DNA of 49,049 nucleotides from an uncultured Flavobacteriales bacterium (GCA_938084875.1 CALKFX010000041.1:1-49049), one strand, 5' to 3'. Shown: positions 13,502 to 48,990, numbered from the stretch's first letter. The notes: generated by a model from the letters alone, not told the origin. Program-made: numbers and translations.

Positions 13502-14725
13502 CTATTCAAAGTCATCGTAAATCAGGTATTTTTTCCTAATTAATTTAAACTTCTCTAACTCCATTTGGTAAGTTTCTCTAATTTGAACTCCACTTGCTCC
13601 ACCTTTAACTAGATTCATAATTTTATCTGTACCCGCCAAGAGATTAAAAAAATCGTTTTTATTAAAAAAATCTAAAGACTCATTAGACATCTTAAAACTT
13701 TTTACCAACCAATTAAAATTTAATGAATTGACATTTCTTAATGAATCCAAACTTAAAGTCCTTAAATCTTCTCCAAAACAATCAATCTCTTTGTACTTTG
13801 GATATTTAGAACCATAAGATGATTTTGGAGTAAATTTAAATAATTTAGAATCAAAATATGGTGCTCCATAAATCTGAAAAGGAAAATCAGTTCCCCTTCC
13901 AATACTAACATTAGTTCCCTCAAAAAAACATAGTGAAGGATACAGGTAAACACTTCTCATATTTGGTAAATTAGGCGAAGGGGGAATAGGTAAATTATAT
14001 TTGATCAAGTGGTTGTAATTCAAGCATGGTATTACTTCTAAAGAACACTTTACAGAATCTTTAAGCCACCTTTCACCATTAATCATTTTAGCATATTCTC
14101 CAATAGTCATTCCGTGAACTACAGGAACTTTATGCATTCCAACAAAAGATTTAAAATTTGGATCGAGAATTGGCCCATCTACATAAAAACCATTAGGATT
14201 AGGTCTATCAAGTAAAATTAATGGAATGCTATTTTCAGCACAAGCCTCCATAACATAGTGCATACTACTTATATAAGTATAAAATCTAACTCCAACATCT
14301 TGCAAATCAAAAAGAATTAGATCTATGTCCTTTAAAACTTCTTTGGAAGGTTTTCTTCTATTTTTACCATACAAGGAATATATGGGCAATCCAGTTTGTA
14401 AATCAATTTCATCCCTAACCTTTGCACCTGCATCTGCATTTCCTCTAAATCCATGTTCTGGTGAAAAAACTTTAACAATGTTTACTCCCTCATTTAGAAG
14501 TATGTCTACTAAATGATCATTTTTAATCTTAGAAGTTTGATTAGCAACAAATCCAATACGTTTACCTTTCAATTTTTGAAAATAAAGTGAGGTTCTTTCA
14601 GCGCCTACAATTATTGAATCTGACTGACAGGATGCGTTTAAAGTATTTAGGAAAAAAAATAATAATAAATACTTAGTTGATATAAAATATTCTTGAAAAT
14701 GTTGATGTTTGTATATCCTTAGCAT
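13502..14725 (-). CDS. DUF1343 family protein (NamZ-like exo-beta-N-acetylmuramidase)
   Basis: RIGFVANQTS, FSPEHGFRGNADAG, IDLILFDLQDVGVRFYTYISSM and LLDRPNPNG are characteristic DUF1343 blocks. The signal/lipoprotein-like N-terminus contains LNASC. Confidence 0.8.
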   Translation of the reverse strand: MLRIYKHQHFQEYFISTKYLLLFFFLNTLNASCQSDSIIVGAERTSLYFQKLKGKRIGFVANQTSKIKNDHLVDILLNEGVNIVKVFSPEHGFRGNADAGAKVRDEIDLQTGLPIYSLYGKNRRKPSKEVLKDIDLILFDLQDVGVRFYTYISSMHYVMEACAENSIPLILLDRPNPNGFYVDGPILDPNFKSFVGMHKVPVVHGMTIGEYAKMINGERWLKDSVKCSLEVIPCLNYNHLIKYNLPIPPSPNLPNMRSVYLYPSLCFFEGTNVSIGRGTDFPFQIYGAPYFDSKLFKFTPKSSYGSKYPKYKEIDCFGEDLRTLSLDSLRNVNSLNFNWLVKSFKMSNESLDFFNKNDFFNLLAGTDKIMNLVKGGASGVQIRETYQMELEKFKLIRKKYLIYDDFE

Positions 14726-26577: not shown

Positions 26578-27686
26578 TAAGAAATAAGTTTAAATATTTC
26601 CTTGACAATATCATCACTAGCATTAGGCTTTCCCATTTTTTTTGCATTTTTTGAAATGGTATTTAATTGATTTTCTTGCTTTAGTAAATCCAAGGCAGTT
26701 CTTAAAAGAGAATCTGTTTGTCTATCCTTAACAAGAATAGCAGCAGATTTATTAACTAAAGACATTGCATTTTTAGTCTGATGGTCTTCTGAAACATTGG
26801 GGGATGGAACCAAAATACTTGGCTTACCTGCCAAAGTAAGTTCACTAATAGACAATGCCCCAGCTCTAGAGATAACTAAATCCGCAAGAGAATAAGCTAA
26901 ATCCATTCTTTTAATAAATGCTAAAGCTTTAACATTAGGAATGTTAATTTGATTTAATTGATTTTCAATAGACTCAAAATATCTTTTTCCAACTTGCCAA
27001 AGTAATTTAATTGGTTGGTCTTTGATTATATGAATAGAATTTAATATTCCTTCATTGATAGATTTTGCTCCTAAACTTCCTCCTAATACTAAAATCACTT
27101 TTTCATTCTTAGAAACTTTAAAATAAGTTTTAGCCTCGGACAACTTAGTATCTAAATTTTCAATGTCTTTTCTCACGGGATTGCCAGTTAAAACTAATTT
27201 AGTTGGTTCAAAAAATTGGTTCATATTTTCATATGCTACACAAATTTTTTTGGTTTTTTTACTCAGCCACTTATTGGTTAATCCAGCATAAGAATTTTGC
27301 TCTTGAATTAATGTTGGGATTTTTAATCTGTGTGCCATTCTTAGGGTTGGACCACTTGCATAGCCACCAACACCAACCACAATATTTGGTTGAAAATCCT
27401 TAATTATTTTTCTTGCATGATTGAAACTTTTTAAAAGTAGAAAGGGAAACTTCAGGTTTTTAATAATTGCATTTATAGACATAGATCTTTGGATGCCCAC
27501 TACATTTAAGCCAATAATTTCAAACCCCTCTTCAGGAACTTTTTCCATTTCCATTCTGCCTTTAGCACCAACAAATAATATTTCCGAGTCTTTATTTATT
27601 TCCAATATTTTCTTTGCAATTGCTATAGCTGGGTAAATATGCCCACCTGTTCCACCACCACTAATAATTACTTTACAGCTAGACAT
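26577..27686 (-). CDS. murG: Undecaprenyl-PP-MurNAc-pentapeptide GlcNAc transferase
   Basis: ISGGGTGGHIYPAIA, GGYASGP, and GGSLGA. Start taken at ATG 27686 (MSSCKVI), overlapping the ftsW stop by 8 nt. The ORF-track start at 27719 would lie inside ftsW. Confidence 0.9.
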   Translation of the reverse strand: MSSCKVIISGGGTGGHIYPAIAIAKKILEINKDSEILFVGAKGRMEMEKVPEEGFEIIGLNVVGIQRSMSINAIIKNLKFPFLLLKSFNHARKIIKDFQPNIVVGVGGYASGPTLRMAHRLKIPTLIQEQNSYAGLTNKWLSKKTKKICVAYENMNQFFEPTKLVLTGNPVRKDIENLDTKLSEAKTYFKVSKNEKVILVLGGSLGAKSINEGILNSIHIIKDQPIKLLWQVGKRYFESIENQLNQINIPNVKALAFIKRMDLAYSLADLVISRAGALSISELTLAGKPSILVPSPNVSEDHQTKNAMSLVNKSAAILVKDRQTDSLLRTALDLLKQENQLNTISKNAKKMGKPNASDDIVKEIFKLIS

Positions 27687-28806
27687 TTTCAGAATCTTTA
27701 TATACTGTTGTACTAACATTTAAAATTATTCCCAAAGAAATACAGGTAAATAATATAGACGTTCCACCCATACTAATTAAAGGCAATGGTTGACCGGTAA
27801 CAGGGAATAAATTTACACCAACTCCCATATTTATAAAGGATTGGAAGATGAGCATAAAACTTAATCCAAATACAATAAGAGAAGCAAATTTACTATCTAC
27901 TTTATTCATGATTCTAATCGCCCTGAAAAATAAAATCATATATAAAATAACCAATCCTATTCCACCTATTATTGAGCCAAATTCTTCAATAGAAGAAGCA
28001 TAAATAAAATCTGATTGAGCAGAATATAAATCATTTTTAACATGTCCTTTCCCAGGACCTTTTCCAAATAAAAATCCATTTGCAACTGCTCGTTTTGCCA
28101 TTTCTGCTTGGTAATTTTCTTGTTTCTCACCACTACCAAAGCTCATTATTCTTTTTTCCCATGTATCCACTCTAGGTAAAAAACCAGGAACTGCCATATT
28201 GACAAGAATTAAAAAAGCAAAACCTAGAAAAGCAGTTCCTACAATAGATCCTAAATGCTTTATTCTAGCTCCACCTATATACATCATTGTAAAACAAACT
28301 GTAAATAACATAGCTGCAGTAGAAAAATCTGCGGGAAGAATTAAGCCACAAATTAGAGCTACAGGCCATAAAATAGGTATTAAACCTTTTTTAAAATCCT
28401 TAATTACGTCCTTCTTATTGGTAAGCATACGCGAGACGTAGATGATTAAAACTAGTTTAGCAAAATCTGAAGGTTGAAATCCCATTATCCATCTAGAAGC
28501 ATTTCCTTTACTAACCCCAAATAAGAGTGTAACAAACAATAAAACAATAGAAACAAAAATTCCTATCTGAGATAATCGTGAAAAATACTTATATGGAAAA
28601 AACTGCAAATAAATAATCAAAATAATTCCGATTATTATAATTAAAGTATGCTTGATAACATAAGGAGCAACATTTCCACCTGAAATTCTGAATGCTAAAT
28701 TAGAACTTGAGCTATAAGCCATTACAATTGAGTATAATGAAAGCAATATTATAATTGTCCAAATTACTTTATCACCCTTTAAGTATTTCTCAATTAGCTG
28801 TTGCAT
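27679..28806 (-). CDS. ftsW: SEDS-family peptidoglycan glycosyltransferase FtsW
   Basis: Polytopic membrane protein with FQPSDFAKL, a DFI..S..EEFG-like block (SDFIYASSIEEFG), and GQPLPLISMGGTS. Confidence 0.9.
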   Translation of the reverse strand: MQQLIEKYLKGDKVIWTIIILLSLYSIVMAYSSSSNLAFRISGGNVAPYVIKHTLIIIIGIILIIYLQFFPYKYFSRLSQIGIFVSIVLLFVTLLFGVSKGNASRWIMGFQPSDFAKLVLIIYVSRMLTNKKDVIKDFKKGLIPILWPVALICGLILPADFSTAAMLFTVCFTMMYIGGARIKHLGSIVGTAFLGFAFLILVNMAVPGFLPRVDTWEKRIMSFGSGEKQENYQAEMAKRAVANGFLFGKGPGKGHVKNDLYSAQSDFIYASSIEEFGSIIGGIGLVILYMILFFRAIRIMNKVDSKFASLIVFGLSFMLIFQSFINMGVGVNLFPVTGQPLPLISMGGTSILFTCISLGIILNVSTTVYKDSENV

Positions 28807-29303
28807 TAATCTATACTGTGAATTAAATTTTTAAAATAATCACCTCTTAACTGATAGTTTTTATGAGTAATATAACTTGAGCAAGCTGGAGAGAAAAGAA
28901 CACTTATATTTTTAGTAGGATTATTTAAAGCCATATTTACCGAATCCCTAATGGTTGACAGTTGAGAGTACTTAACTTTAGAGCCAAAGAGATATTTTAT
29001 TTTGGTTTCATGTTTTCCATAATAGATTATCTCTGTTACTTTTGACAAAACTAAATCCTCTAATACCTCCAAATCTCTTGGAGATTGGTTTTCACCTACT
29101 ATCCAAATAATTGGTCCATCTATTTTAGACAAAGAATATGCTGTAGGTCCAGTGTCTGTAGATTTGGAATCATTGATCCAAATTTTTTCATGCTTGTTTG
29201 AAAAAAAATCAAGCCTGTGATCAATTGACGATAAAGAATTCAAAGATTCTTTTCTTTTATTAAGGAGCTGTTTTCTTATAGATTTTTGCTTAAGTATATT
29301 CAT
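28806..29303 (-). CDS. Stand-alone Mur-ligase C-terminal-domain protein, a paralogue of MurD domain 3
   Basis: The 165-aa ORF aligns without gaps to the last 135 aa of the adjacent MurD. Matching blocks are HRL, INDSK(S/A)T, IWIVG, LE.LV..KV, KIK..FGS, SPACSS and NY..RG..FKN. It has its own ATG 9 nt after the murD stop, and its stop overlaps the ftsW ATG (TAATG). Confidence 0.7.
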   Translation of the reverse strand: MNILKQKSIRKQLLNKRKESLNSLSSIDHRLDFFSNKHEKIWINDSKSTDTGPTAYSLSKIDGPIIWIVGENQSPRDLEVLEDLVLSKVTEIIYYGKHETKIKYLFGSKVKYSQLSTIRDSVNMALNNPTKNISVLFSPACSSYITHKNYQLRGDYFKNLIHSID

Positions 29304-29312
29304 TTACAAAAA

Positions 29313-30665
29313 TTATAACGTTCTTACAGCATTTTTAAATTGATGCCCTCTATCTTCGTAATTCTCAAATAAATCGAAACTAGAACAAGCAGGAGATAGC
29401 AATACATTAAATCCTTTTTTGGCAATTCTATAACTAATTTGTACTGCTTGATCCGCTGACTCAGCTTCATAAAAAGAATCCACTATGGAACCAAAAGCCT
29501 CTTTAATCTTAGAATTATCTTTTCCTAAGCAAACAATACCTAAAACTTTTTGTTTTACAAGTCCCTCTAATATGGAATAATCATTTCCTTTATCTACCCC
29601 ACCAACAATCCAAATAGTTGGTTGCTGCATACTTTCTAAAGCATACCATGTTGAATTGACATTTGTCGCCTTTGAATCATTTATAAAATTAATTCCATGG
29701 ATTTTGGCAACATCCTCTAATCTATGTTCTACATTTTGAAAATCCGCTAAACTATCTCGGATAATTTCTTTTCTAATATCTAAAACTCTTGCTGCTACTC
29801 CCGCAGCCATAGAATTAAATAAATTGTGCTTGCCTTGTTGGGCCAATTGATGAATGGACATAATTGTTTGTTTTTTATTGTTTATACTGATTTTTATTTG
29901 TTCTTTTTCTAACCAAGATCCTTTGAGCAACTTCTCATTAATGGAAACTGGAGCTAATTCGTAAGAGATTTCGTCTTTAGACATAATCCATTCTGATATT
30001 ACTTTATCGTCATGGTTATATATTAGACAATCACTTTTGGACATGTTTTGACAAATCCTAAATTTACTTTTTGAATATTTTGTGAAATCATGTTCGTATC
30101 TATCCAAATGATCTGGTGTAATATTTAGAATTATTGAAATGTCAGATTTGAAATTGTACATTCTATCTAATTGAAAGCTACTTAGTTCAATTACATAATA
30201 GTCAATGCTTTCAAGAGCTACTGACATGGCATAACTTTGGCCTATATTCCCAACTGCTTTTACATTGTATCCTGCATTCTCTAAAAGGTAGGTAACCATT
30301 AGAGTGGTTGTGGTCTTTCCGTTAGTTCCAGTAACACATATTTTTTTTGCATTACAGAAATAGCTTGCGAACTCAATTTCACTGATAATGGGTTTGGAAC
30401 TTTTTAGAAAATACTTTACTAATTGGTGGTCATTGTCGATTCCAGGGCTAACAACTAAAATATCTTGAATAGTAGATATAAATGGCATATAATCCCCTTG
30501 ATAAAATTTAACTCCATGTTCTCTTAAAGTATTGGTAGATTCCTTAGATATTTTTGAATCGTCACAGACAACTACATTTAAGTTATTTTTCTTAGCCAAT
30601 ACCGCTGCACCAACACCACTTTTTCCAGCACCTAAAACCACAATATTTTGAAAGTTTTTTATCAT
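29313..30665 (-). CDS. murD: UDP-N-acetylmuramoylalanine--D-glutamate ligase
   Basis: [13 protein letters not shown], the ATP loop [22 protein letters not shown], and [18 protein letters not shown]. Confidence 0.9.
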
Positions 30666-31903
30666 CTAAGTTTTAGAGTTACAATGGAAAAAACTGCCAG
30701 TAGAATACCTAGTATCCAAAATCTAGATACTATTTTTGCCTCGTGAATTCCTTTCTTTTGGAAATGATGATGAATTGGAGACATTAAGAAGATTCTTCTA
30801 CCTTCCCCAAATTTTCTTTTGGTGTATTTGAAATAAGAAACTTGGAGGACAACACTTAAATTTTCTATAAGAAAAACCCCGCAGAAAACTGGAATTAATA
30901 ATTCCTTTCTAATTGCTATAGCAAAAACAGCAATTATACCTCCCAAAGCCAAACTACCTGTATCGCCCATGAAAACTTTTGCAGGAAATGAATTGTACCA
31001 TAAAAATCCAATACATGCTCCAACAAATGAGCTTATAAAAATCACAAGCTCAGATGAGTTTGGGATGTATAGAATATTCAAATAATCGGAAAAAACTAAA
31101 TTTCCTGAGAGATATGCAAAGATTGCTAATGTTATTCCAATAATTGCACTAGTTCCTGTAGCAAGGCCATCTAGGCCATCTGTTAAATTAGCGCCATTGG
31201 ATACTGAAATAACAATAATTACAATAATAGGAATAAACACTAGCCACGAATATTTGGACAACTCTGGACTTATCCAGCTAATTAGCCATGAATAATCGAA
31301 CTCATTATTTTTAACAAATGGAATTGTAGTTTTAAGTGATTTTGTCTCTTCCCAGAAATAACTTTTTGATTCTTGAGAACTCTCTTGCTGATTGGCAAGA
31401 ATTTCCGTGTTGTAATAAGTTTTAGATTTAATTGTAACAGATTCACTCCAATACATAGAAGCTCCTACAATTATTCCAACTCCAATTTGTCCAATTACTT
31501 TAAACTTTCCAGCTAATCCTTTTTTATTTTTTTTAAATACTTTAATGTAATCGTCTAGAAAACCAATCAATCCTAACCAGACAGTTGCAACAAGCATTAA
31601 TTGAATGTAAATGTTATCTAACTTGGCGAAAAGTATGGTTGGTACTATGATACCAGCTAAAATGATAACCCCACCCATTGTAGGTGTTCCTGCCTTCACC
31701 ATTTGACCTTCTAAACCCAAATCTCTAATAGACTCCCCAACTTGTTTTTTCTGTAAGAATTTAATTAGCCTTCCTCCAAAAACAAGTGTAATAACAAGTG
31801 AAGTAATTACTGCCATCCCGGCTCTAAATGAGATAAATTCGAATAATCCTGAACCAGGAAAGTCAAAATTTTGATTTATATAATTAAAAAAATGATAAAG
31901 CAT
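30662..31903 (-). CDS. mraY: Phospho-N-acetylmuramoyl-pentapeptide transferase
   Basis: [39 protein letters not shown], and SPIHHHF. Confidence 0.95.
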
Positions 31904-33366
31904 TATTGTTGTATTTGTTTGAAAATTTCTATGGTAGTTTCTAAATCATCAAAATGTAATTTCTCATCTCCAATGATTTGATACTTCTCATGCCCTTTGC
32001 CGGCAATTAAAATCACATCTCCACTTTCTGCTAATTCACAAGCAACTTTAATTGCTTGTCTTCTTTCTTGAACAGTTAATACTTTAGAAGATTTAGACTT
32101 TGGAATTCCTGAAATAATTTCCTTAATAATTTCGCTTGGCTTTTCACTTCTAGGATTATCGGAAGTTACTATCACCCTATCGCTATAGACGGATGAAATT
32201 TCACCCATTAATGGTCGTTTTCCCTTGTCTCTGTCTCCTCCACAACCAAATACAGTAAATATCTTTTCTTTATCGCTTTTTAGACTAACTAATGTTTTTA
32301 AAACATTTTCAAGAGCATCTGGTGTATGGGCATAGTCAATTACTGCTGTGACATTTCTTGGTGAAACGATGTACTCAAATCTGCCATCTGGTGCTTTTAG
32401 ATTACTTATAATTGTTAAAACAGTAAGAGCTTCTTCACCAAGAGATTTAGCTACTGCAAAAACAACCAAAAGATTGTAAGCATTAAATTCTCCTATCAAT
32501 CTAGAGGTCATTTCAAATCCGTCAATTTCTACTGAAAGTCCACTTATGTTATTTTCAACAATTTTCCCTTTAAAATCAAAATCACCCTTTAGTCCATAAG
32601 AAAATGGCTTTGCATTTATGTCTCTAACCATTTCTTCACCATAAGGGTCGTCAAAGTTTACAATTGCTAAAGCATCGTTTTTAAGAGAGTCAAATAACTT
32701 TTTCTTAGCACCTATATAGTCATTTAACGTAGGGTGATAGTCCATGTGATCTCTTGAAATATTGGTATAAACTCCAATATCAAAAGATAATCCAGAGACT
32801 CTATTTTGGTCTAAAGCATGAGAACTTACTTCCATAAAAACATGGGAACAACCATCTTTAACCATTTGACTCAACAATTCATTGATCCTAATTGCGTTTG
32901 GTGTTGTGTGAGTTGAGGGAATTGTTTTGTGAAGAATTTTAATGTGTACAGTTGAAATAAGCCCAGTTTTGTATCCCATTAGCCTATACAAATCATATAA
33001 TAATGTTGCGCATGTAGTCTTACCGTTGGTACCTGTTATTCCAACTAGTTTTAATTTTTCGGAGGGATTATCGAAAAAATTTGAGGCTATAATTCCTAAA
33101 GACTTTGAACTATCTAAAACTTTGATATAAGTAATCTCGTCACTTAAAATTTCAGGTAGACTTTCACAAATTATAGCAGATGCACCGTTATTCTGAGCTT
33201 GAGAAATAAAATCATGCCCATCTTGAGAGACTCCTTTTACAGCTATAAACAAAGAAAGATTTTTAATTTCTCTTGAGTCAAATGCTATATTTTCTACAGC
33301 AATATTAGTATTGCCTTTTATCTCGATGATTCTAATTCCATATATAATATCCCTTAGTAATTTCAT
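31903..33366 (-). CDS. murE: UDP-MurNAc-L-Ala-D-Glu--2,6-diaminopimelate ligase
   Basis: [30 protein letters not shown], and the DNPRSE motif (DAP-type). Confidence 0.9.
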
Positions 33367-39745: not shown

Positions 39746-40785
39746 AGAAGAAAAAAAAAATATTAATTGCTCCCCTAGACTGGGGTTTAGGTCATATATC
39801 TAGAACCATTCCGATTATAAAAATTCTGCAAGAAAGAGGGCACGAGGTAATTACATGTGGAAATAAAATATCCTATAATATTTATAAAGAAGAATTTTCA
39901 AAAATTAAACATATTGAAATTCAAGGCTACAAGCCTTATTACAGTAAAAAAAGAAGCCAAAAGTGGGCGTTAATAAAACAAATTCCAAAATTTATTAAAA
40001 CTATACATAATGAAAGAAAGATAGCTGAGAAAATAAGTCTTGAGCAAAATGTGGACATAATTATTTCAGATAATAGATTTGGGTTTAGAAGCAGTAAAAC
40101 ATTAAACATATATATAACTCACCAACTTAAAATTAATGGCCCCTTACTTTTAATGAAGATTGTTAACCTAATAAATAGACTATTAATTCAAAAGTTTGAC
40201 CACTGTTGGGTTCCTGACTATAATAACTCTTCACTGTCAGGAAAACTATCTCAATCTAGTCTGGAGAAAACCTTTATTGGACCACTAAGTAGGTTTAAAA
40301 CAAGTGTGAGTAAAACTAAAAAGTATAAATACAAATATTTAGCAATTATCTCTGGACCGGAACCACAAAGAAGTATATTCGAAGATGAAATTCAAATTTG
40401 TTTCCTTAAGACTAACAAACATTGCGCGATAATAAATGGTCTAATAAACACAAAAGAAATATCTTCTGGGAAGATTTCTTTTTACCCACATTTAGAAACA
40501 ACTGCTTTTAAAGAATTAATAACCAAATCTGAGCTGGTTATATGTAGGTCTGGATATAGCAGTATAATGGATCTTTATATTATGCAAAAAAAAGTTCTTT
40601 TCATACCAACACCAGGTCAAACAGAACAAGAATATTTAGCCAAACACCATCAAAAAACTCATTCAATTTACTATCAAAAGCAAGGAAGAATAGACCTTGA
40701 AAAAGCAAGTTTTAATTTTATACAACCAAAATCTGAATTGAAAAAAAATCTACTTCAAGCAGCTTTTAAAAAGGTAATTTTATAA
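39739..40785 (+). CDS. MurG-like (GT28/GT1-type) glycosyltransferase with an unresolved start codon. The open frame spans 39739..40785.
   Basis: The ORF track starts at GTG 40051. The same frame is open back to the TAA at 39736..39738 and encodes KKKKKILIAPLDWGLGHISRTIPIIKILQERGHEVITCG, the conserved N-terminal Rossmann half of this GT family. The C-terminal half carries RSGYSSIMD and IPTPGQTEQ. There is no in-frame ATG, GTG or TTG between 39739 and 40051. Confidence 0.7.
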   Translation: MLKKKKKILIAPLDWGLGHISRTIPIIKILQERGHEVITCGNKISYNIYKEEFSKIKHIEIQGYKPYYSKKRSQKWALIKQIPKFIKTIHNERKIAEKISLEQNVDIIISDNRFGFRSSKTLNIYITHQLKINGPLLLMKIVNLINRLLIQKFDHCWVPDYNNSSLSGKLSQSSLEKTFIGPLSRFKTSVSKTKKYKYKYLAIISGPEPQRSIFEDEIQICFLKTNKHCAIINGLINTKEISSGKISFYPHLETTAFKELITKSELVICRSGYSSIMDLYIMQKKVLFIPTPGQTEQEYLAKHHQKTHSIYYQKQGRIDLEKASFNFIQPKSELKKNLLQAAFKKVIL

Positions 40786-44121: not shown

Positions 44122-45267
44122 TTAGTTCTTTAAAAAACGCTTAAAAATAGACCGAACAAAAGGTTTAGGAGATACTGATGTAATAATCTTCAGATCTTCT
44201 ATAAAGTTGGATTCCTCAGCCAAAAACTTTAAGATAGTTTTGACATTTACTTTTTTAAAAATAGAAGCAAACAATGAAGACCCATTTTCGTTGTCATTAG
44301 CAAGTACGTCTAAAAAAAACAAATCGTAAATCCAATATTTAGTTCTTTTAGCAAACCCTGATAAATCATCTTCTTTTTTAAGAAAAGAAACCAAGTCTTG
44401 AGTCTTTTTAGAAGTATTATAAAAGGTATACCCTGTGCTTGCCTTAGTCCATCCTCCTGCAGTTCCAATATTAAGTATGCTATTTGAGTTTAATTCTTGA
44501 AATTTGAAAGAAGTCATAGGGATAACCCCATTTTCTTTCTCTAAAATCTCAAATTCAGTAACCTTTTTTTCTTTTAAGTAATCCTTTATTGCAACTTCGT
44601 ATTCAGAACGTTCTAATAAGTCTTTTGAAAATAAAGTGTACTCAAACAGCGCTATATTTTTATCGATTGGTAAAACATACATAAAACGGGTGTTGCCATT
44701 CTGAGGGATATTGAAGTCCATAAAGGTGGCAACCGAATCATCAAAACAGTTTATTTTTGTTTTCACAAACCAGCCCATAAAATGCTGTTGTAATACAGGA
44801 TATTTTTGTTGTTTTTCATAAACTGTTTTATCTGGAATGCTGTTTAGAAGTTTCAACCCAAAATAAGTTGATTTATTTGTAACAACTTTTACTTTATTAT
44901 CTGCTTCTGAATATGTTTTGACACTGTCTTCAACAAAAGTAATATTGGGCTTTAGATCTATACTTCTCCAAAGTTTTTGATAAAACTTTTCACTTCTTAT
45001 CATCTTATAACTAAATGGTGAAATATTAAGTGTTTCAGTGAAATCTTTACTTCCAAAAAACACCTTAGGCCACTTTTTAGATAACAATTCATCCCACTCT
45101 CCAACTCCTTGTTCCCAATAACACCAAGTTTTATCGTTTCCTTTATCTTTTTTTTGATCAATAATTAAAATGGATTTATCATCAAAATAACTATCTAGAG
45201 ACATGCGATAAGCAAGCAATAAACCTGATGCTCCAGCTCCTAGGATGATGTAAGACGAAGGAGTCAT
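44122..45267 (-). CDS. crtY: Lycopene beta-cyclase (CrtY family)
   Basis: FAD/NAD fold N-terminus YIILGAGASGLLLA, 381 aa, and GTAGGWTKASTGY. It lies next to crtZ, crtB and crtI. Confidence 0.8.
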   Translation of the reverse strand: MTPSSYIILGAGASGLLLAYRMSLDSYFDDKSILIIDQKKDKGNDKTWCYWEQGVGEWDELLSKKWPKVFFGSKDFTETLNISPFSYKMIRSEKFYQKLWRSIDLKPNITFVEDSVKTYSEADNKVKVVTNKSTYFGLKLLNSIPDKTVYEKQQKYPVLQQHFMGWFVKTKINCFDDSVATFMDFNIPQNGNTRFMYVLPIDKNIALFEYTLFSKDLLERSEYEVAIKDYLKEKKVTEFEILEKENGVIPMTSFKFQELNSNSILNIGTAGGWTKASTGYTFYNTSKKTQDLVSFLKKEDDLSGFAKRTKYWIYDLFFLDVLANDNENGSSLFASIFKKVNVKTILKFLAEESNFIEDLKIITSVSPKPFVRSIFKRFLKN

Positions 45268-45357
45268 CTATAATAAAAAGAAAATTGAAAGAAAATAATA
45301 ACAAATGCCAAAAACGAACAAAAATGTATTGTTTGGTACAAATATTTTTGCATAAAG

Positions 45358-45813
45358 CTATTTAAATTGTCTGAAATATTTAAAAGGAACCAATAGCATT
45401 CCAAAACATACCCCGCCTTCTTTAGACAGTTTTTTATGATGGGCTTTGTGCCCTCTTCTTATACCCAACAAATATCTATTTTTAGTTTTCTTAAGAACTT
45501 TTACTCTTTGATGAATAAATAAATCGTGAACAAAAAAATAGGCCATTCCATAGAAAGTAATTCCCATACCAATCCAAAAGGGAATAAATTCTAATCCTAT
45601 TTCAATACCATACATAATTAAAATTGATCCTGGTAATGCAAAAATCAAAAAGAAGAAATCATTTTTTTCAAAAAAGCCTTTATTGTCTCTAGTATGGTGG
45701 TCTCTATGAAAATACCATAATAGACCATGCATAATATAACGATGCGTAAACCAGGCAATAAATTCCATGGCAAAAAAAGTAACAATAAAAACAGAAAAAT
45801 TTATTAAATCCAA
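45358..45813 (-). CDS. crtZ: Beta-carotene 3-hydroxylase
   Basis: Fatty-acid-hydroxylase histidine boxes HRYIMHG, HRDHH, HDLFIHQR, and HKAHHK. TTG start overlapping crtB by 10 nt. Confidence 0.85.
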   Translation of the reverse strand: MDLINFSVFIVTFFAMEFIAWFTHRYIMHGLLWYFHRDHHTRDNKGFFEKNDFFFLIFALPGSILIMYGIEIGLEFIPFWIGMGITFYGMAYFFVHDLFIHQRVKVLKKTKNRYLLGIRRGHKAHHKKLSKEGGVCFGMLLVPFKYFRQFK

Positions 45814-46640
45814 TTGAATTGATTTTGGAACATAGATTTAAAGGTAATAAGGATTTTTTTAGTATTTGGAACTCTTATTCTTTCTTCCATTAATCTATCA
45901 GAAGAAACCTTTTTTATCTTTTTAAATAAAGAAAAATAATATCTGTAAGCTACATAAACTCCTAACCTTGAGGAGGATGGCAGTTTAATAATACCTTCAA
46001 GTGCACATTCGAAATCATCTTGAATGTCTTCTTCAATTTTGAGTTTTTCATCAGGTGTAAATTTCTCCAAATCTACTCCTGGAAAATAAGTTCTACCCAA
46101 CTCTTGATAATCTGCTTTGACATCTCTTAGAAAATTGATTTTCTGAAAAGCAGCTCCCAACTTACGTGCAGGTTCTTCAAGATTTAAATATAAATCGTTA
46201 TCACCATTTACAAAAACTTTCAAACACATTAAACCAACAACTTCTGCAGAACCTACAATGTATTCTTTATATCCATCACTTGAATATTGAATATCATTCA
46301 AATCTTGCTCCATACTTAGAAGAAACTTATCAATTAATTCTCTATCAATGGAGAATTTATTAACCACCATTTGAAAAGCATGAAGAATAGGATTAACACT
46401 TATTTTCCTATCTAGAGATTTATATGTTTCTTCTTTAAACTCTTGTAACATCTTAGATTTAGGATAGTCATGAAAAGTATCGACAATTTCATCTGCTAAT
46501 CGAACAAAACCATAAATGGAAAAAATAGCATCGTGAATATTCTTGTCTAATAATTTAATTCCCATAGAAAAACTAGTACTGTAAAGTTGAGTTACATTTT
46601 TGCTAGCATCTACGGATATTTTATGATACAAATCTATCAT
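45804..46640 (-). CDS. crtB: Phytoene synthase
   Basis: YSTSFSMGI, the Asp-rich motif FVRLADEIVD, and a second motif around YIVGSAEVVG / FLRDVKADY. Confidence 0.9.
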   Translation of the reverse strand: MIDLYHKISVDASKNVTQLYSTSFSMGIKLLDKNIHDAIFSIYGFVRLADEIVDTFHDYPKSKMLQEFKEETYKSLDRKISVNPILHAFQMVVNKFSIDRELIDKFLLSMEQDLNDIQYSSDGYKEYIVGSAEVVGLMCLKVFVNGDNDLYLNLEEPARKLGAAFQKINFLRDVKADYQELGRTYFPGVDLEKFTPDEKLKIEEDIQDDFECALEGIIKLPSSSRLGVYVAYRYYFSLFKKIKKVSSDRLMEERIRVPNTKKILITFKSMFQNQFNWI

Positions 46641-48115
46641 TATGACTTATTTAAATATTTATCAATTTCTATAGCTGCAATTTGGCCTGAGATAATACTA
46701 GGTGGGACACCAGGTCCTGGAACAGTTAGTTGTCCAGTGTAATAAAGATTTTTTATTTTTTTATTTCTCATTCTTGGCTTAAGAATAGCAGTTTGCCTTA
46801 AAGTATTAGCTAATCCGTATGCATTTCCCTTAAAAGAATTATAATCTTTTTCAAAATCATTAACACAATAGGATTTTTTAAATATTATATTTTTTTCAAT
46901 ATCATTTCCCGTTAGGTCTTTCAGTCTTTTTAATACAATATCAAAATACTTTTCTCTCATTTCATTAGTGTCTTCCAATCCTGGGGCTAGAGGAATTAAA
47001 AACATTAAATTTTCGTTTCCTGTAGGAGCTAAGGATGGGTCAGTAATCGATGGACAAGATAAATAAAAAAGTGGATTTTTAGGCCATTTTGGATTATCAT
47101 AAATTTCTTTAGCATGTTGATCAAAGTCTGCATCAAAAAACAAGTTGTGATGTTGTAAATTATTTAACCTCTTATCTACCCCAACGTAGAAAAGTAAACT
47201 TGATGGAGACATTTCTCTCTTTTCCCAATATTCAGTACTATAATTTCTAAAAGGTTTTTCAAGTAATTTTTGTTCAACGTGGTGGTAATCTGCAGATGCA
47301 ATAACTCCGTCAAAAAATAATTTTTCTCCATTAACAACAATGTTTTCTATATTACCATTGACAATGTTGAGCCTATCTACGTTAGAATCACAATTAATTA
47401 TTACTCCTTTTTCCTTAGCTAATTTGGAAAGTCCTATAATAATTTCATGAAAACCACCCATAGGATAATATGTTCCTTGGGAAAAGGCTGAGTAATTCAT
47501 TAGAGAATAAAGTGCAGGTGTATTTTGCGGAGTAGCTCCCAAAAAGAGAACAGGGAATTCCATTAATCTTGTTAGTCTGCTATCTGAGAAGTATTTTTTA
47601 ACATAAGATCTGAAATTAGAAAATACATCTAGATAAAGAACCCCAATCAGAACTTTTAAATTAATAAATTCAAATATTGAATGGGAGGGCTTGTATACCA
47701 AACTGTCCATTCCAATTTTATATTTTATTGCTGCTTTTTTTAAAAACTTCTTGAGTCTAGAGCCACTGCCCTTTTCAATGTTTTCAAATAAATCAACAAG
47801 TTCTTCAAAAGATGCAGGAACATCGATAGAATAATCTTTTCCATAGACAACTGAAAAACCAGGATCTAACTTTAATAAATTATAATAGTCCCCCACTTTT
47901 TTACCATGTCTTGCAAAAAACTTATCGAAAACATCTGGCATCCAATACCAACTCGGGCCCATATCAAAGGTAAATCCATTAGTTTCAAACTTTCTTGCTC
48001 GACCACCGGGAGTACTATTTTTTTCAAAAATAGTTACTTGATAGCCAAGTGAAGCAAGTTCGATTGCAGAAGTTAGGCCTGCAAATCCAGAACCGATTAC
48101 AGCAATTTTTTTCAA
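46640..48115 (-). CDS. crtI: Phytoene desaturase
   Basis: FAD fold IAVIGSGFAGLTSAIELA...FEKNSTPGGRA and a C-terminal GQLTVPGPGVP. The TTG start overlaps the regulator stop (TTGA). Confidence 0.9.
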   Translation of the reverse strand: MKKIAVIGSGFAGLTSAIELASLGYQVTIFEKNSTPGGRARKFETNGFTFDMGPSWYWMPDVFDKFFARHGKKVGDYYNLLKLDPGFSVVYGKDYSIDVPASFEELVDLFENIEKGSGSRLKKFLKKAAIKYKIGMDSLVYKPSHSIFEFINLKVLIGVLYLDVFSNFRSYVKKYFSDSRLTRLMEFPVLFLGATPQNTPALYSLMNYSAFSQGTYYPMGGFHEIIIGLSKLAKEKGVIINCDSNVDRLNIVNGNIENIVVNGEKLFFDGVIASADYHHVEQKLLEKPFRNYSTEYWEKREMSPSSLLFYVGVDKRLNNLQHHNLFFDADFDQHAKEIYDNPKWPKNPLFYLSCPSITDPSLAPTGNENLMFLIPLAPGLEDTNEMREKYFDIVLKRLKDLTGNDIEKNIIFKKSYCVNDFEKDYNSFKGNAYGLANTLRQTAILKPRMRNKKIKNLYYTGQLTVPGPGVPPSIISGQIAAIEIDKYLNKS

Positions 48116-48990
48116 TTAAGAGAAGAGTTGCTAAAGAATCTATCAAATTCATCTAGCTTATAGAAAACTTTTCCGTGAGTATTGACAAGTCTTAACAAAT
48201 CAGGATTTCCAGCAAAAAATAGTTTAGTGTTAGAATGATTGTGAAGGTCGTCACAAAACTTTTGCAAAAGAGTAACTTTCTGACCAACAATGAATGTAGT
48301 AAATAAAATATCAGGTTTTATTTTTTCAATACATTGTAAAATACTTTCAAATGAAATAGTTTTTCCAACATTTACAATATCAAAACCATTTTCCTTAAGA
48401 ATCATATGAGAATAAAGCAATGCAAAATCGTGATCTTCCCACGGAGGTAAAAATAAATATGCTTTTTTATTTTTTCTCACTGGATTATCCACTGCCTCTA
48501 TAGCATGATAAAACTTTTGCTTAATAAGATTCGACAAAAAATGTTCCTGAGCAGGAAATAATTCTCCTGATGACCATAAAGCACCGATTCTTCTAAGAGT
48601 TGGTATAAAAACATTCTCATAAACAAAAGATAAGTTGTAATCCTTTCTAAGAGATTCATAAGTTCTATTAAAAAGAGGTTCATCAAATTGAAGTGAGCAA
48701 ATTACAAAATTATTGATTTGCGCTTCGAAAGATGCAGAATTTGAAGTCAACGAAATTACCTTGCTAGATAATTCTTCCAAAGACAAAGAAGCAATTTTAC
48801 TGATTTTTAATCCATTATTAATCAGAAAAGATATATTCAATATTTTTTTTAGTTGGTCGTCGTTATAAGCTCTGATGTTTGTGTCAGATCTTTCAGGACT
48901 TACTATGTTATATCGTTTTTCCCATATTCGAATAGTATGAGATTTGATACCTGATAATTTTTCTAAATCTGCAATTGAATAAGTCTGCAT
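48112..48990 (-). CDS. MerR-family regulator with a C-terminal cobalamin-binding domain (CarH/LitR-like light-responsive repressor)
   Basis: MerR HTH YSIADLEKLSGIKSHTIRIWEKRY...RAYNDDQL. The Wx9EH motif reads W139-SSGELFPAQ-E149-H150. The B12 lower-ligand-type motif is EDH187DFA, followed by a Rossmann-like GFDIVNVG. It lies directly upstream of crtI. Confidence 0.8.
   Translation of the reverse strand: MQTYSIADLEKLSGIKSHTIRIWEKRYNIVSPERSDTNIRAYNDDQLKKILNISFLINNGLKISKIASLSLEELSSKVISLTSNSASFEAQINNFVICSLQFDEPLFNRTYESLRKDYNLSFVYENVFIPTLRRIGALWSSGELFPAQEHFLSNLIKQKFYHAIEAVDNPVRKNKKAYLFLPPWEDHDFALLYSHMILKENGFDIVNVGKTISFESILQCIEKIKPDILFTTFIVGQKVTLLQKFCDDLHNHSNTKLFFAGNPDLLRLVNTHGKVFYKLDEFDRFFSNSSLN

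Follow-up and report, generated by a model that had tools for sequence, protein, structure and literature searches.

Gene Order at the murD–ftsW Junction

The subject of this study is a short gene, hereafter X, located between murD and ftsW in the division and cell wall (dcw) gene cluster of an uncultured Flavobacteriales bacterium (GCA_938084875.1, CALKFX010000041.1:1-49049; this whole stretch of 49,049 nucleotides (nt) is referred to as the window). X encodes a protein of 165 amino acids (aa) and is a copy of the C-terminal part of MurD, comprising the last helix of domain 2 and the whole of domain 3. It belongs to a family defined here as type A, that is, stand-alone MurD C-terminal proteins of about 160–190 aa encoded between a full-length murD and ftsW. 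The dcw cluster is complete in the window and runs on the minus strand in the order mraZ, rsmH, ftsI, murE, mraY, murD, X, ftsW, murG, murC, ftsQ, ftsA, ftsZ; the gene order of this cluster is reported to be highly conserved (PMC8871954). The features of the junction are as follows:

28806..29303, minus strand: X, stand-alone MurD domain-3 paralogue (type A), stop codon included; ATG start; BLASTP match to MurD residues 297-450 and match to TIGR01087
29313..30665, minus strand: murD, full length, 450 aa, with its own domain 3 carrying GGVDKGNDY; matches to TIGR01087 and Pfam
27679..28806, minus strand: ftsW, 375 aa; PF01098, 223 bits
29304..29312, minus strand: 9-nt spacer from the murD stop to the ATG of X, sequence TTTTTGTAA, with a second in-frame stop inside
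28804..28808, minus strand: TAATG, the stop of X overlapping the start of ftsW

The murD/X junction reads TAA TTTTTGTAA ATG, in agreement with a preliminary description of this locus, which had placed the start codon of X 9 nt past the murD stop; the TAATG overlap with ftsW, also described there, was read directly from the sequence, and the same kind of coupling was found, as it had stated, elsewhere in the operon, with overlapping junctions at mraY/murD, murE/mraY, and murG/murC. Neither an excess of promoters nor a terminator was detected at the examined junctions between murD, X, and ftsW. A read-through product fusing MurD to X was considered and rejected: the two genes are in the same frame in the window, yet two stops lie between them, and the spacer length of 7–12 nt in other loci means that there is no conserved frame and no read-through fusion. 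The murF gene is located outside this dcw cluster, with mraY (30662-31903, minus strand) directly after murE (31903-33366, minus strand), and likewise in all related loci that were read.

Relationship of X to MurD Domain 3

The MurD encoded upstream of X is a complete enzyme, scoring 380 bits with the NCBIfam murD model TIGR01087 (cutoff 212) and containing all three Pfam Mur-ligase domains (N-terminal, central, and C-terminal). BLASTP aligned residues 9-164 of X with residues 297-450 of this MurD at 58/157 identities (37%, E=3e-30). The paralogy claimed in the preliminary description is thereby supported, its count of about 50 identities being slightly low, but the alignment is not gapless as stated, since it includes two small gaps of 3 aa and 1 aa. 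The motifs listed there (HRL, INDSKST, IWIVG, SPACSS, and RG..FKN) were all found in X at the places given.

TIGR01087 matched X with 98.3 bits (E=5e-28) over model positions 292-440 only, without reaching the curated cutoff of 211.95, and no match to PF21799, PF21377, or PF08245 was found in the Pfam search; the start of X corresponds approximately to MurD residue 289. The UDP-binding and ATPase domains are thus absent, as had been noted, and a protein without the UDP-binding domain, the P-loop, and the central domain cannot perform ligation alone. A search with PF02875 (Mur_ligase_C), proposed earlier as a check, gave no match to X itself even at E<=1, although the same model matched 23 of 25 diverse family members at E<=0.01 (best 9e-11).

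A sequence profile of the family retrieved only MurD chains from the PDB (E=5e-21). The AlphaFold model of X (predicted local distance difference test score, pLDDT, 80.5) follows Mur-ligase domain 3 in its beta-alpha-beta order, with a long helix of low confidence in front. In a Foldseek comparison of this model with the PDB, the top 33 matches were all MurD, with template modelling (TM) scores of 0.67-0.74 and root-mean-square deviations of 2.5-3.0 Å over about 140 positions, so the superposition on MurD domain 3 suggested in the preliminary description holds (TM 0.74).

Distribution and Synteny of Type A

A search of 5.8 billion proteins revealed 142 relatives of X, nearly all 161–182 aa in length, with identities ranging from 92% to about 41%. 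In an exhaustive hidden Markov model (HMM) search of 1.84 billion cluster representatives, stand-alone proteins of 163–186 aa ranked above full-length MurDs, and a profile of these proteins found hundreds more members labelled Flavobacteriales, Salibacteraceae, or Parvicellaceae; altogether, the members form hundreds of 90%-identity clusters with conserved length. Scanning one genome per species identified 19 carrier species, all of them uncultured marine Flavobacteriales labelled Crocinitomicaceae, Cryomorphaceae, or MED-G20. A cultured carrier is Parvicella tangerina, whose protein (WP_258543043.1) is annotated as a "glutamate ligase domain-containing protein", while its UniRef copy is mislabelled MurD. 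Across the family, the database labels are "hypothetical", "glutamate ligase domain-containing", or, wrongly, MurD. Full-text literature searches returned no paper on a stand-alone MurD C-terminal protein, in line with the earlier remark that no function has been described for one.

The order murD–X–ftsW was observed in 26/26 related loci read, including 19 species-level genomes; in three of these loci, one of them on a contig of 4.38 Mb, it forms part of a full dcw cluster from the wider family. A survey of murD–ftsW junctions, which the preliminary description had called for, therefore places the extra gene in several Flavobacteriales families: X is kept between murD and ftsW across Crocinitomicaceae, Cryomorphaceae, Parvicellaceae, and Salibacteraceae. 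Of the 24 loci in the clade of the window, which include the window itself, 23 have an intact open reading frame (ORF); in this clade the murD–X spacer is 7–12 nt long, and X either overlaps ftsW or ends 3–11 nt before it; outside this clade the gap between X and ftsW is 3–25 nt. The sole disrupted copy, in MED-G20 bin195 (L010:4001-4499, CAJJCR010000015.1), carries a 1-nt insertion near nt 81 together with the substitution R30T, which reflects either an assembly error or genuine loss or dispensability of the gene in one lineage.

Selection and Origin

Ratios of nonsynonymous to synonymous substitution rates (dN/dS) were calculated by the Nei-Gojobori method (NG86) for 56 locus pairs with a murD dS of 0.05–1.5; as the pairs are non-independent and some dS values are near saturation, the ratios are to be read with this in mind. 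The median dN/dS was 0.133 for X, 0.033 for MurD domain 3, 0.115 for MurD residues 1-296, and 0.042 for FtsW. The values for X ranged from 0.06 to 0.43 over all pairs, and within the protein dN/dS was 0.23 for the N-terminal helix and 0.13 for the core. X is under purifying selection, the direction of which is unambiguous, about 4-fold more relaxed than that on MurD domain 3.

On a neighbour-joining tree, 12 context-verified copies and 17 others formed one clade with no MurD C-terminal domain inside it (bootstrap 0.79), and the co-resident MurD C-terminal domains formed their own exclusive clade (bootstrap 0.89). The identity between X and MurD is 33–40% in every lineage. The exclusive type-A clade and this constant identity indicate a single old duplication of the 3' third of murD, which predated the radiation of the carrier families.

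Residue Pattern of Type A

Residue frequencies were determined for 220 type-A proteins and 54 full MurDs using E. coli MurD numbering. Type A keeps H301, R302, N316, D317, S318, K319, T321, S410, P411, R425, and G426 at 96-100%, and S415 is retained in 86-99%; the ATP-side motifs HR and NDSKxT, together with SP, S415, and RG, are conserved as strictly as they are in genuine MurD. On the other hand, glycine at position 345 and lysine at position 348 were found in 0% of type-A proteins versus 100% and 94% of full MurDs, respectively; position 348 is occupied by Ser in the clade of the window and by Val, Leu, Met, or Ile elsewhere. X conforms to the type-A signature, having R17, N44-D45-(S)-K47, W67, L136, S138-P139, and G154 and no Gly-Gly or Lys in the strand-3 loop. 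The corresponding features of X are located as follows:

29229..29303, minus strand: residues 1-25, basic N-terminal helix corresponding to the last helix of MurD domain 2, with the invariant Arg17; helix 3-22 in the model, low confidence
29214..29219, minus strand: His29-Arg30, corresponding to E. coli MurD H301-R302; 96-100% conserved in type A
29157..29174, minus strand: NDSKST, residues 44-49, corresponding to MurD N316-T321 (ATP-ribose/phosphate side and the Thr of the D-glutamate (D-Glu) site)
29076..29096, minus strand: GENQSPR, residues 70-76, degenerate counterpart of the D-Glu-binding loop GGxDK(G)ND of MurD; K348 replaced by Ser74
28875..28892, minus strand: SPACSS, residues 138-143, corresponding to MurD S410-S415; S410 and P411 99-100%, S415 86-99%
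28842..28847, minus strand: Arg153-Gly154, corresponding to MurD R425-G426; 97-100% conserved

In NDSKST, the N, D, S, and K are 100% conserved and the T 97-100% among the 220 members, while Arg17 of the N-terminal helix is invariant across 25 diverse members. K348, A414, and L416 adjoin D-Glu in MurD, and K319 adjoins ADP (PMC8788868). Since the nucleotide-facing residues are retained and the K348 loop is gone, type A keeps the ATP-closing face of domain 3 and not its D-Glu-anchoring loop. The earlier statement that the ligand-contact blocks are retained is therefore correct for HR/NDSKxT on the ATP side and for SP, S415, and RG, but not for the D-Glu loop, GGxDK with K348 being absent in 220/220 proteins.

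The N-terminal helix has a net charge of +5 in X versus -1 in its MurD counterpart. Proteins of the AT-rich clade have an isoelectric point (pI) of 9.3, as against 5.4 for the wider family, so that the high value is clade-specific; charge was rejected as a hint to function, since the only general feature is a modestly basic helix at the N-terminus.

Degenerate Occupants of the murD–ftsW Slot

For a background sample, we used 80 loci from a metagenome scan with a generic NDSK pattern, which are mostly ordinary MurD. The preliminary description held that Bacteroidota normally run murD–ftsW directly; this is the case in 52 of the 80 loci and not in the rest, among which type A was present in 6-8 and a gap of 350-540 nt in 13-14. 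Eleven of the gapped loci hold an ORF of 123-174 aa in the gap, and 8 of these 11 ORFs make up one group, the Fluviicola type, with the same architecture as type A but with the HR/NDSK positions replaced by HGK(L/V)xGMDxFSWxxP, PF..W, and LLF(T/S). These proteins, from Fluviicola sp. and other Flavobacteriales, are annotated as "hypothetical protein".

A profile-profile comparison (hhalign) aligned the Fluviicola type with type A end to end over 152 columns (97% probability, E=7e-11), whereas its similarity to a single MurD was undetectable (E=0.14). The best PDB matches of its AlphaFold model (pLDDT 85.6) were the C-terminal domains of Mpl, MurF, MurD, and cyanophycin synthetase, at E of about 1e-3. 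Its dN/dS is about 0.13, estimated from the single pair that was close enough. Type A is thus the intermediate through which a wider range of proteins at the murD–ftsW junction can be traced back to MurD. The conservation of the Fluviicola type without HR and NDSK implies that the function maintaining the gene does not everywhere depend on the ligand-contact residues of MurD.

Other divergent occupants of the slot were seen at L081:3101-3580, L106:2647-3171, and L105:3446-3817. The divergent occupants include a high-GC group from Flavobacteriales metagenome-assembled genomes (MAGs; 75 contigs, <=1.8 Mb), matching the type-A HMM at 7e-9 and 1e-14, and a 123-aa protein matching it at 3e-5. At one background locus (L043:3750-5084), the FtsW frame continues about 130 nt further upstream than the FtsW-like region, giving a 444-aa ORF. 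FtsW may be extended at its N-terminus here, or the upstream start codon may be an artefact; the 429-nt murD–ftsW gap of this locus contains no separate small gene, and the 444-aa ORF accounts for part of it.

Other Stand-Alone Domain-3 Proteins

A second arrangement, type B, was found in Bacteroidales/Bacteroidia MAGs, where mraY is followed by a gene for a 181-184-aa MurD C-terminal protein and then by ftsW, with no full-length murD in the cluster. Examples are:

L029:10001-10549
L032:10001-10549
L027:5001-5549
L028:376-924

One such cluster sits on a 1.46-Mb contig. Type B is numerous, with hundreds of proteins (322 matches at E<1e-20), and begins at the equivalent of MurD Met269. Its GG loop is retained, and 68% of the proteins have K or R at position 348, but R302, K319, and T321 are relaxed; besides this different residue pattern, it is not nested inside type A on the tree. 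Some 182-aa database entries, for example P0174, which are MurD fragments called from a conserved internal Met, and P0534 (303 aa, on a frameshift-ridden contig) were left out of type B.

A further 184-aa MurD-C-like protein, P0225, is encoded at L030:10001-10555 (GCA_004196315.1, SDBT01000113.1) amid about 50 small same-strand ORFs without a Pfam or PHROG match, with RNase H and RNase T genes flanking. This region may be a phage or another mobile element; tblastn against phage records found only generic MurD at 30-37%, ten ORFs near P0225 had no PHROG match, and stop-codon recoding was not indicated.

Possible Function of X

The reading that we favour, at a probability of roughly 40%, is that X is a non-catalytic, MurD-derived binding module co-produced with MurD and FtsW. 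It rests on the retention of the nucleotide-facing residues, the tight junctions, and the persistence of the slot with drifting chemistry. X, MurD, and FtsW would be made from the same transcript through the close or overlapping junctions, and the retained "top-of-sheet" face of X (HR, NDSKxT, SP..S, RG) would bind a partner. The likeliest one would be the ATP-bound central domain of MurD, or else the nucleotide or the UDP-MurNAc-peptide itself; we infer that docking on the ATP-bound MurD central domain is the most economical hypothesis. Binding could then modulate or scaffold the addition of D-Glu and the hand-off to the membrane steps, with no product made by X. The different conserved motif on the same face of the Fluviicola type suggests that a binding role persists while the chemistry drifts. 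Mur-ligase C-termini can dock neighbouring enzymes, and natural MurD–FtsW fusions exist (PMC10214165).

Several observations weigh against a binding module acting with MurD. MurD has its own tethered domain 3, a competitor for the free copy, and in B. pertussis neither MurC nor MurD associates with itself, nor do the two bind one another (PMC10214165). The Fluviicola type lacks HR and NDSK, so a function shared by the whole family cannot depend on these residues. One MAG copy has both a frameshift and R30T, and X evolves about 4 times faster than MurD domain 3. Moreover, the position beside ftsW may simply reflect tandem duplication and have no functional meaning.

A broader and rather doubtful extension of the binding-module reading is that free MurD domain-3 proteins constitute a recurrent regulatory or assembly layer of cytoplasmic peptidoglycan synthesis in Bacteroidota. 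Type A would dock in trans on the ATP-loaded MurD core, gating the addition of D-Glu or coupling it to FtsW, while in type B MurD would be genuinely split or replaced, with domain 3 as a separate protein.

The preliminary description proposed a sensor or adaptor, and one could hypothesise that X binds FtsW, MurG, or MraY rather than MurD and thereby tethers or reports precursor synthesis at the septum. The overlap of X with the ftsW start in the clade of the window and the short gap elsewhere, the natural fusions joining domain 3 directly to FtsW (PMC10214165), the basic N-terminal helix, and the location of type B immediately upstream of ftsW even though murD is absent there all fit an adaptor of the divisome or the membrane steps. 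However, adjacency to ftsW is weak evidence because it is expected from the origin of the gene at the murD 3' end, X has no membrane-binding or transmembrane segment, and a high pI is peculiar to the AT-rich clade; we consider this possibility unlikely.

It is less probable still that X is a catalytic subunit acting in trans, in which the free domain would take the place of the tethered one above domains 1-2 of MurD, or of a different Mur ligase, and create an alternative active site whose amino-acid specificity would differ owing to the replaced Lys loop. R302, D317, and K319 are 98-100% conserved, a level that matches true enzymes and is difficult to account for unless X has an ATP-bound partner, and position 348 with its neighbours controls Glu recognition in MurD and MurD2 (PMC8788868); the presence of a domain-3 protein alone in the murD slot of type B would also be explained if domain 3 works in trans. 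Nevertheless, the MurD of these bacteria is complete, with a domain 3 of its own that is extremely constrained (dN/dS 0.033), and an intramolecular domain should outcompete a free one. In addition, the ATP-side residues are gone from the Fluviicola-type orthologues, and type B has a different residue pattern and a place outside type A. No sign of an unusual peptidoglycan stem peptide came up for these bacteria, although no search aimed at one was made.

We assign a similarly low likelihood to X being a free small-molecule binder. Its most conserved residues follow strands 1, 2, 3, and 6, in the loops that form the classical crevice for ligands in this fold, but the equivalent residues of MurD bind ligands only jointly with domain 2, the D-Glu-anchoring Lys is gone, and the PDB search gave full MurD chains only and no stand-alone domain with a ligand.

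Finally, a decaying duplication remnant or annotation artefact (a pseudogene or a frameshift-split MurD), to which the 1-nt insertion in one MAG copy, the failure of Pfam Mur_ligase_C to match the copy in the window, and evolution faster than that of MurD domain 3 could point, is effectively refuted: the upstream MurD is complete, hence not split, an undamaged gene of conserved length is present in 23/24 clade loci and across hundreds of 90%-identity clusters, dN/dS is 0.06-0.43 over all pairs (median 0.13), synteny holds in 26/26 loci, and the family is old and spans several Flavobacteriales families, so that X is a selected gene, as the preliminary description maintained.

Comparison with Known Systems

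The closest counterpart of X is MurD domain 3 itself, with which it has in common the fold (TM 0.67-0.74), 37% identity, and the HR, NDSKxT, SPAxxS, and RG motifs. It differs in being a separate polypeptide without domains 1-2, in the loss of the GGxDK/K348 loop, in its about 4 times faster evolution, and in an N-terminal helix that is extended, more basic, and provided with an invariant Arg. Weaker fold matches of X include the MurT chains 6h5e and 6gs2 of MurT-GatD, the lipid II isoglutaminyl synthase. In this complex the Mur-ligase-like MurT docks its partner via the C-terminal domain, so a domain of this kind can be a protein-protein interface; unlike X, MurT is catalytic and keeps the central ATPase domain, and its operon context and taxonomy are unrelated. 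A distant match is the MurE-like subunit of the plastid-encoded RNA polymerase (8qma_O, 8ras_Q), a non-catalytic structural subunit derived from a Mur ligase, which, however, comes from eukaryotes, is much larger, has an unrelated function, and resembles X only weakly (TM about 0.5).

Natural Mur chimeras, MurD-FtsW and MurE-MurF (PMC10214165), are evidence that the C-terminus of a Mur ligase can contact the next enzyme and that the C-terminal end of MurD can be joined to FtsW, but they fuse complete enzymes, whereas X is a duplicated domain that has been released. A second MurD-related gene is also found in the MurD2/MurL systems of Xanthomonas and other bacteria, where position 348 tunes Glu recognition (PMC8788868). 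MurD2 is a full-length ligase and MurL an ATP-dependent epimerase, reported from some Proteobacteria and Actinobacteria and not from Bacteroidota; this identity was rejected for X on the grounds of its dissimilar architecture and different taxa and because the ligase encoded next to X is MurD at equivalog level and has Lys at position 348.

Other Features of the Window

For an ORF of 244 aa at 40051-40785 (plus strand), the match to the MurG-type glycosyltransferase domain is limited to the C-terminal half of that domain (PF04101, E=4e-8, residues 152-206); the product could be a partial-domain relative of a dcw enzyme or simply another glycosyltransferase. A NamZ-family exo-beta-N-acetylmuramidase of peptidoglycan recycling, with both domains present (E=8e-81), is encoded at 13502-14725 (minus strand), about 8 kb from the dcw cluster. 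The region 44122-48990 (minus strand) is a carotenoid block consisting of genes for lycopene cyclase, a phytoene-desaturase-like amine oxidase, and a MerR regulator with a B12-binding domain (CarH-like light switch).

Significance

X represents a Mur-ligase domain released as a pseudoenzyme. The family gives an evolutionary origin to widespread "hypothetical proteins" of abundant marine and freshwater Flavobacteriales, and the frequent mis-annotation of type-A proteins as MurD is corrected. The murD–ftsW junction sits in one of the most conserved gene clusters of bacteria, Mur ligases are antibiotic targets, and closure of domain 3 is central to their catalysis; X is a candidate for a natural MurD modulator. 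Being under selection and predicted to be co-produced with both MurD and FtsW, this free version of the mobile domain offers a natural tool for asking if the cytoplasmic Mur enzymes assemble into a complex and how they are linked to the divisome.

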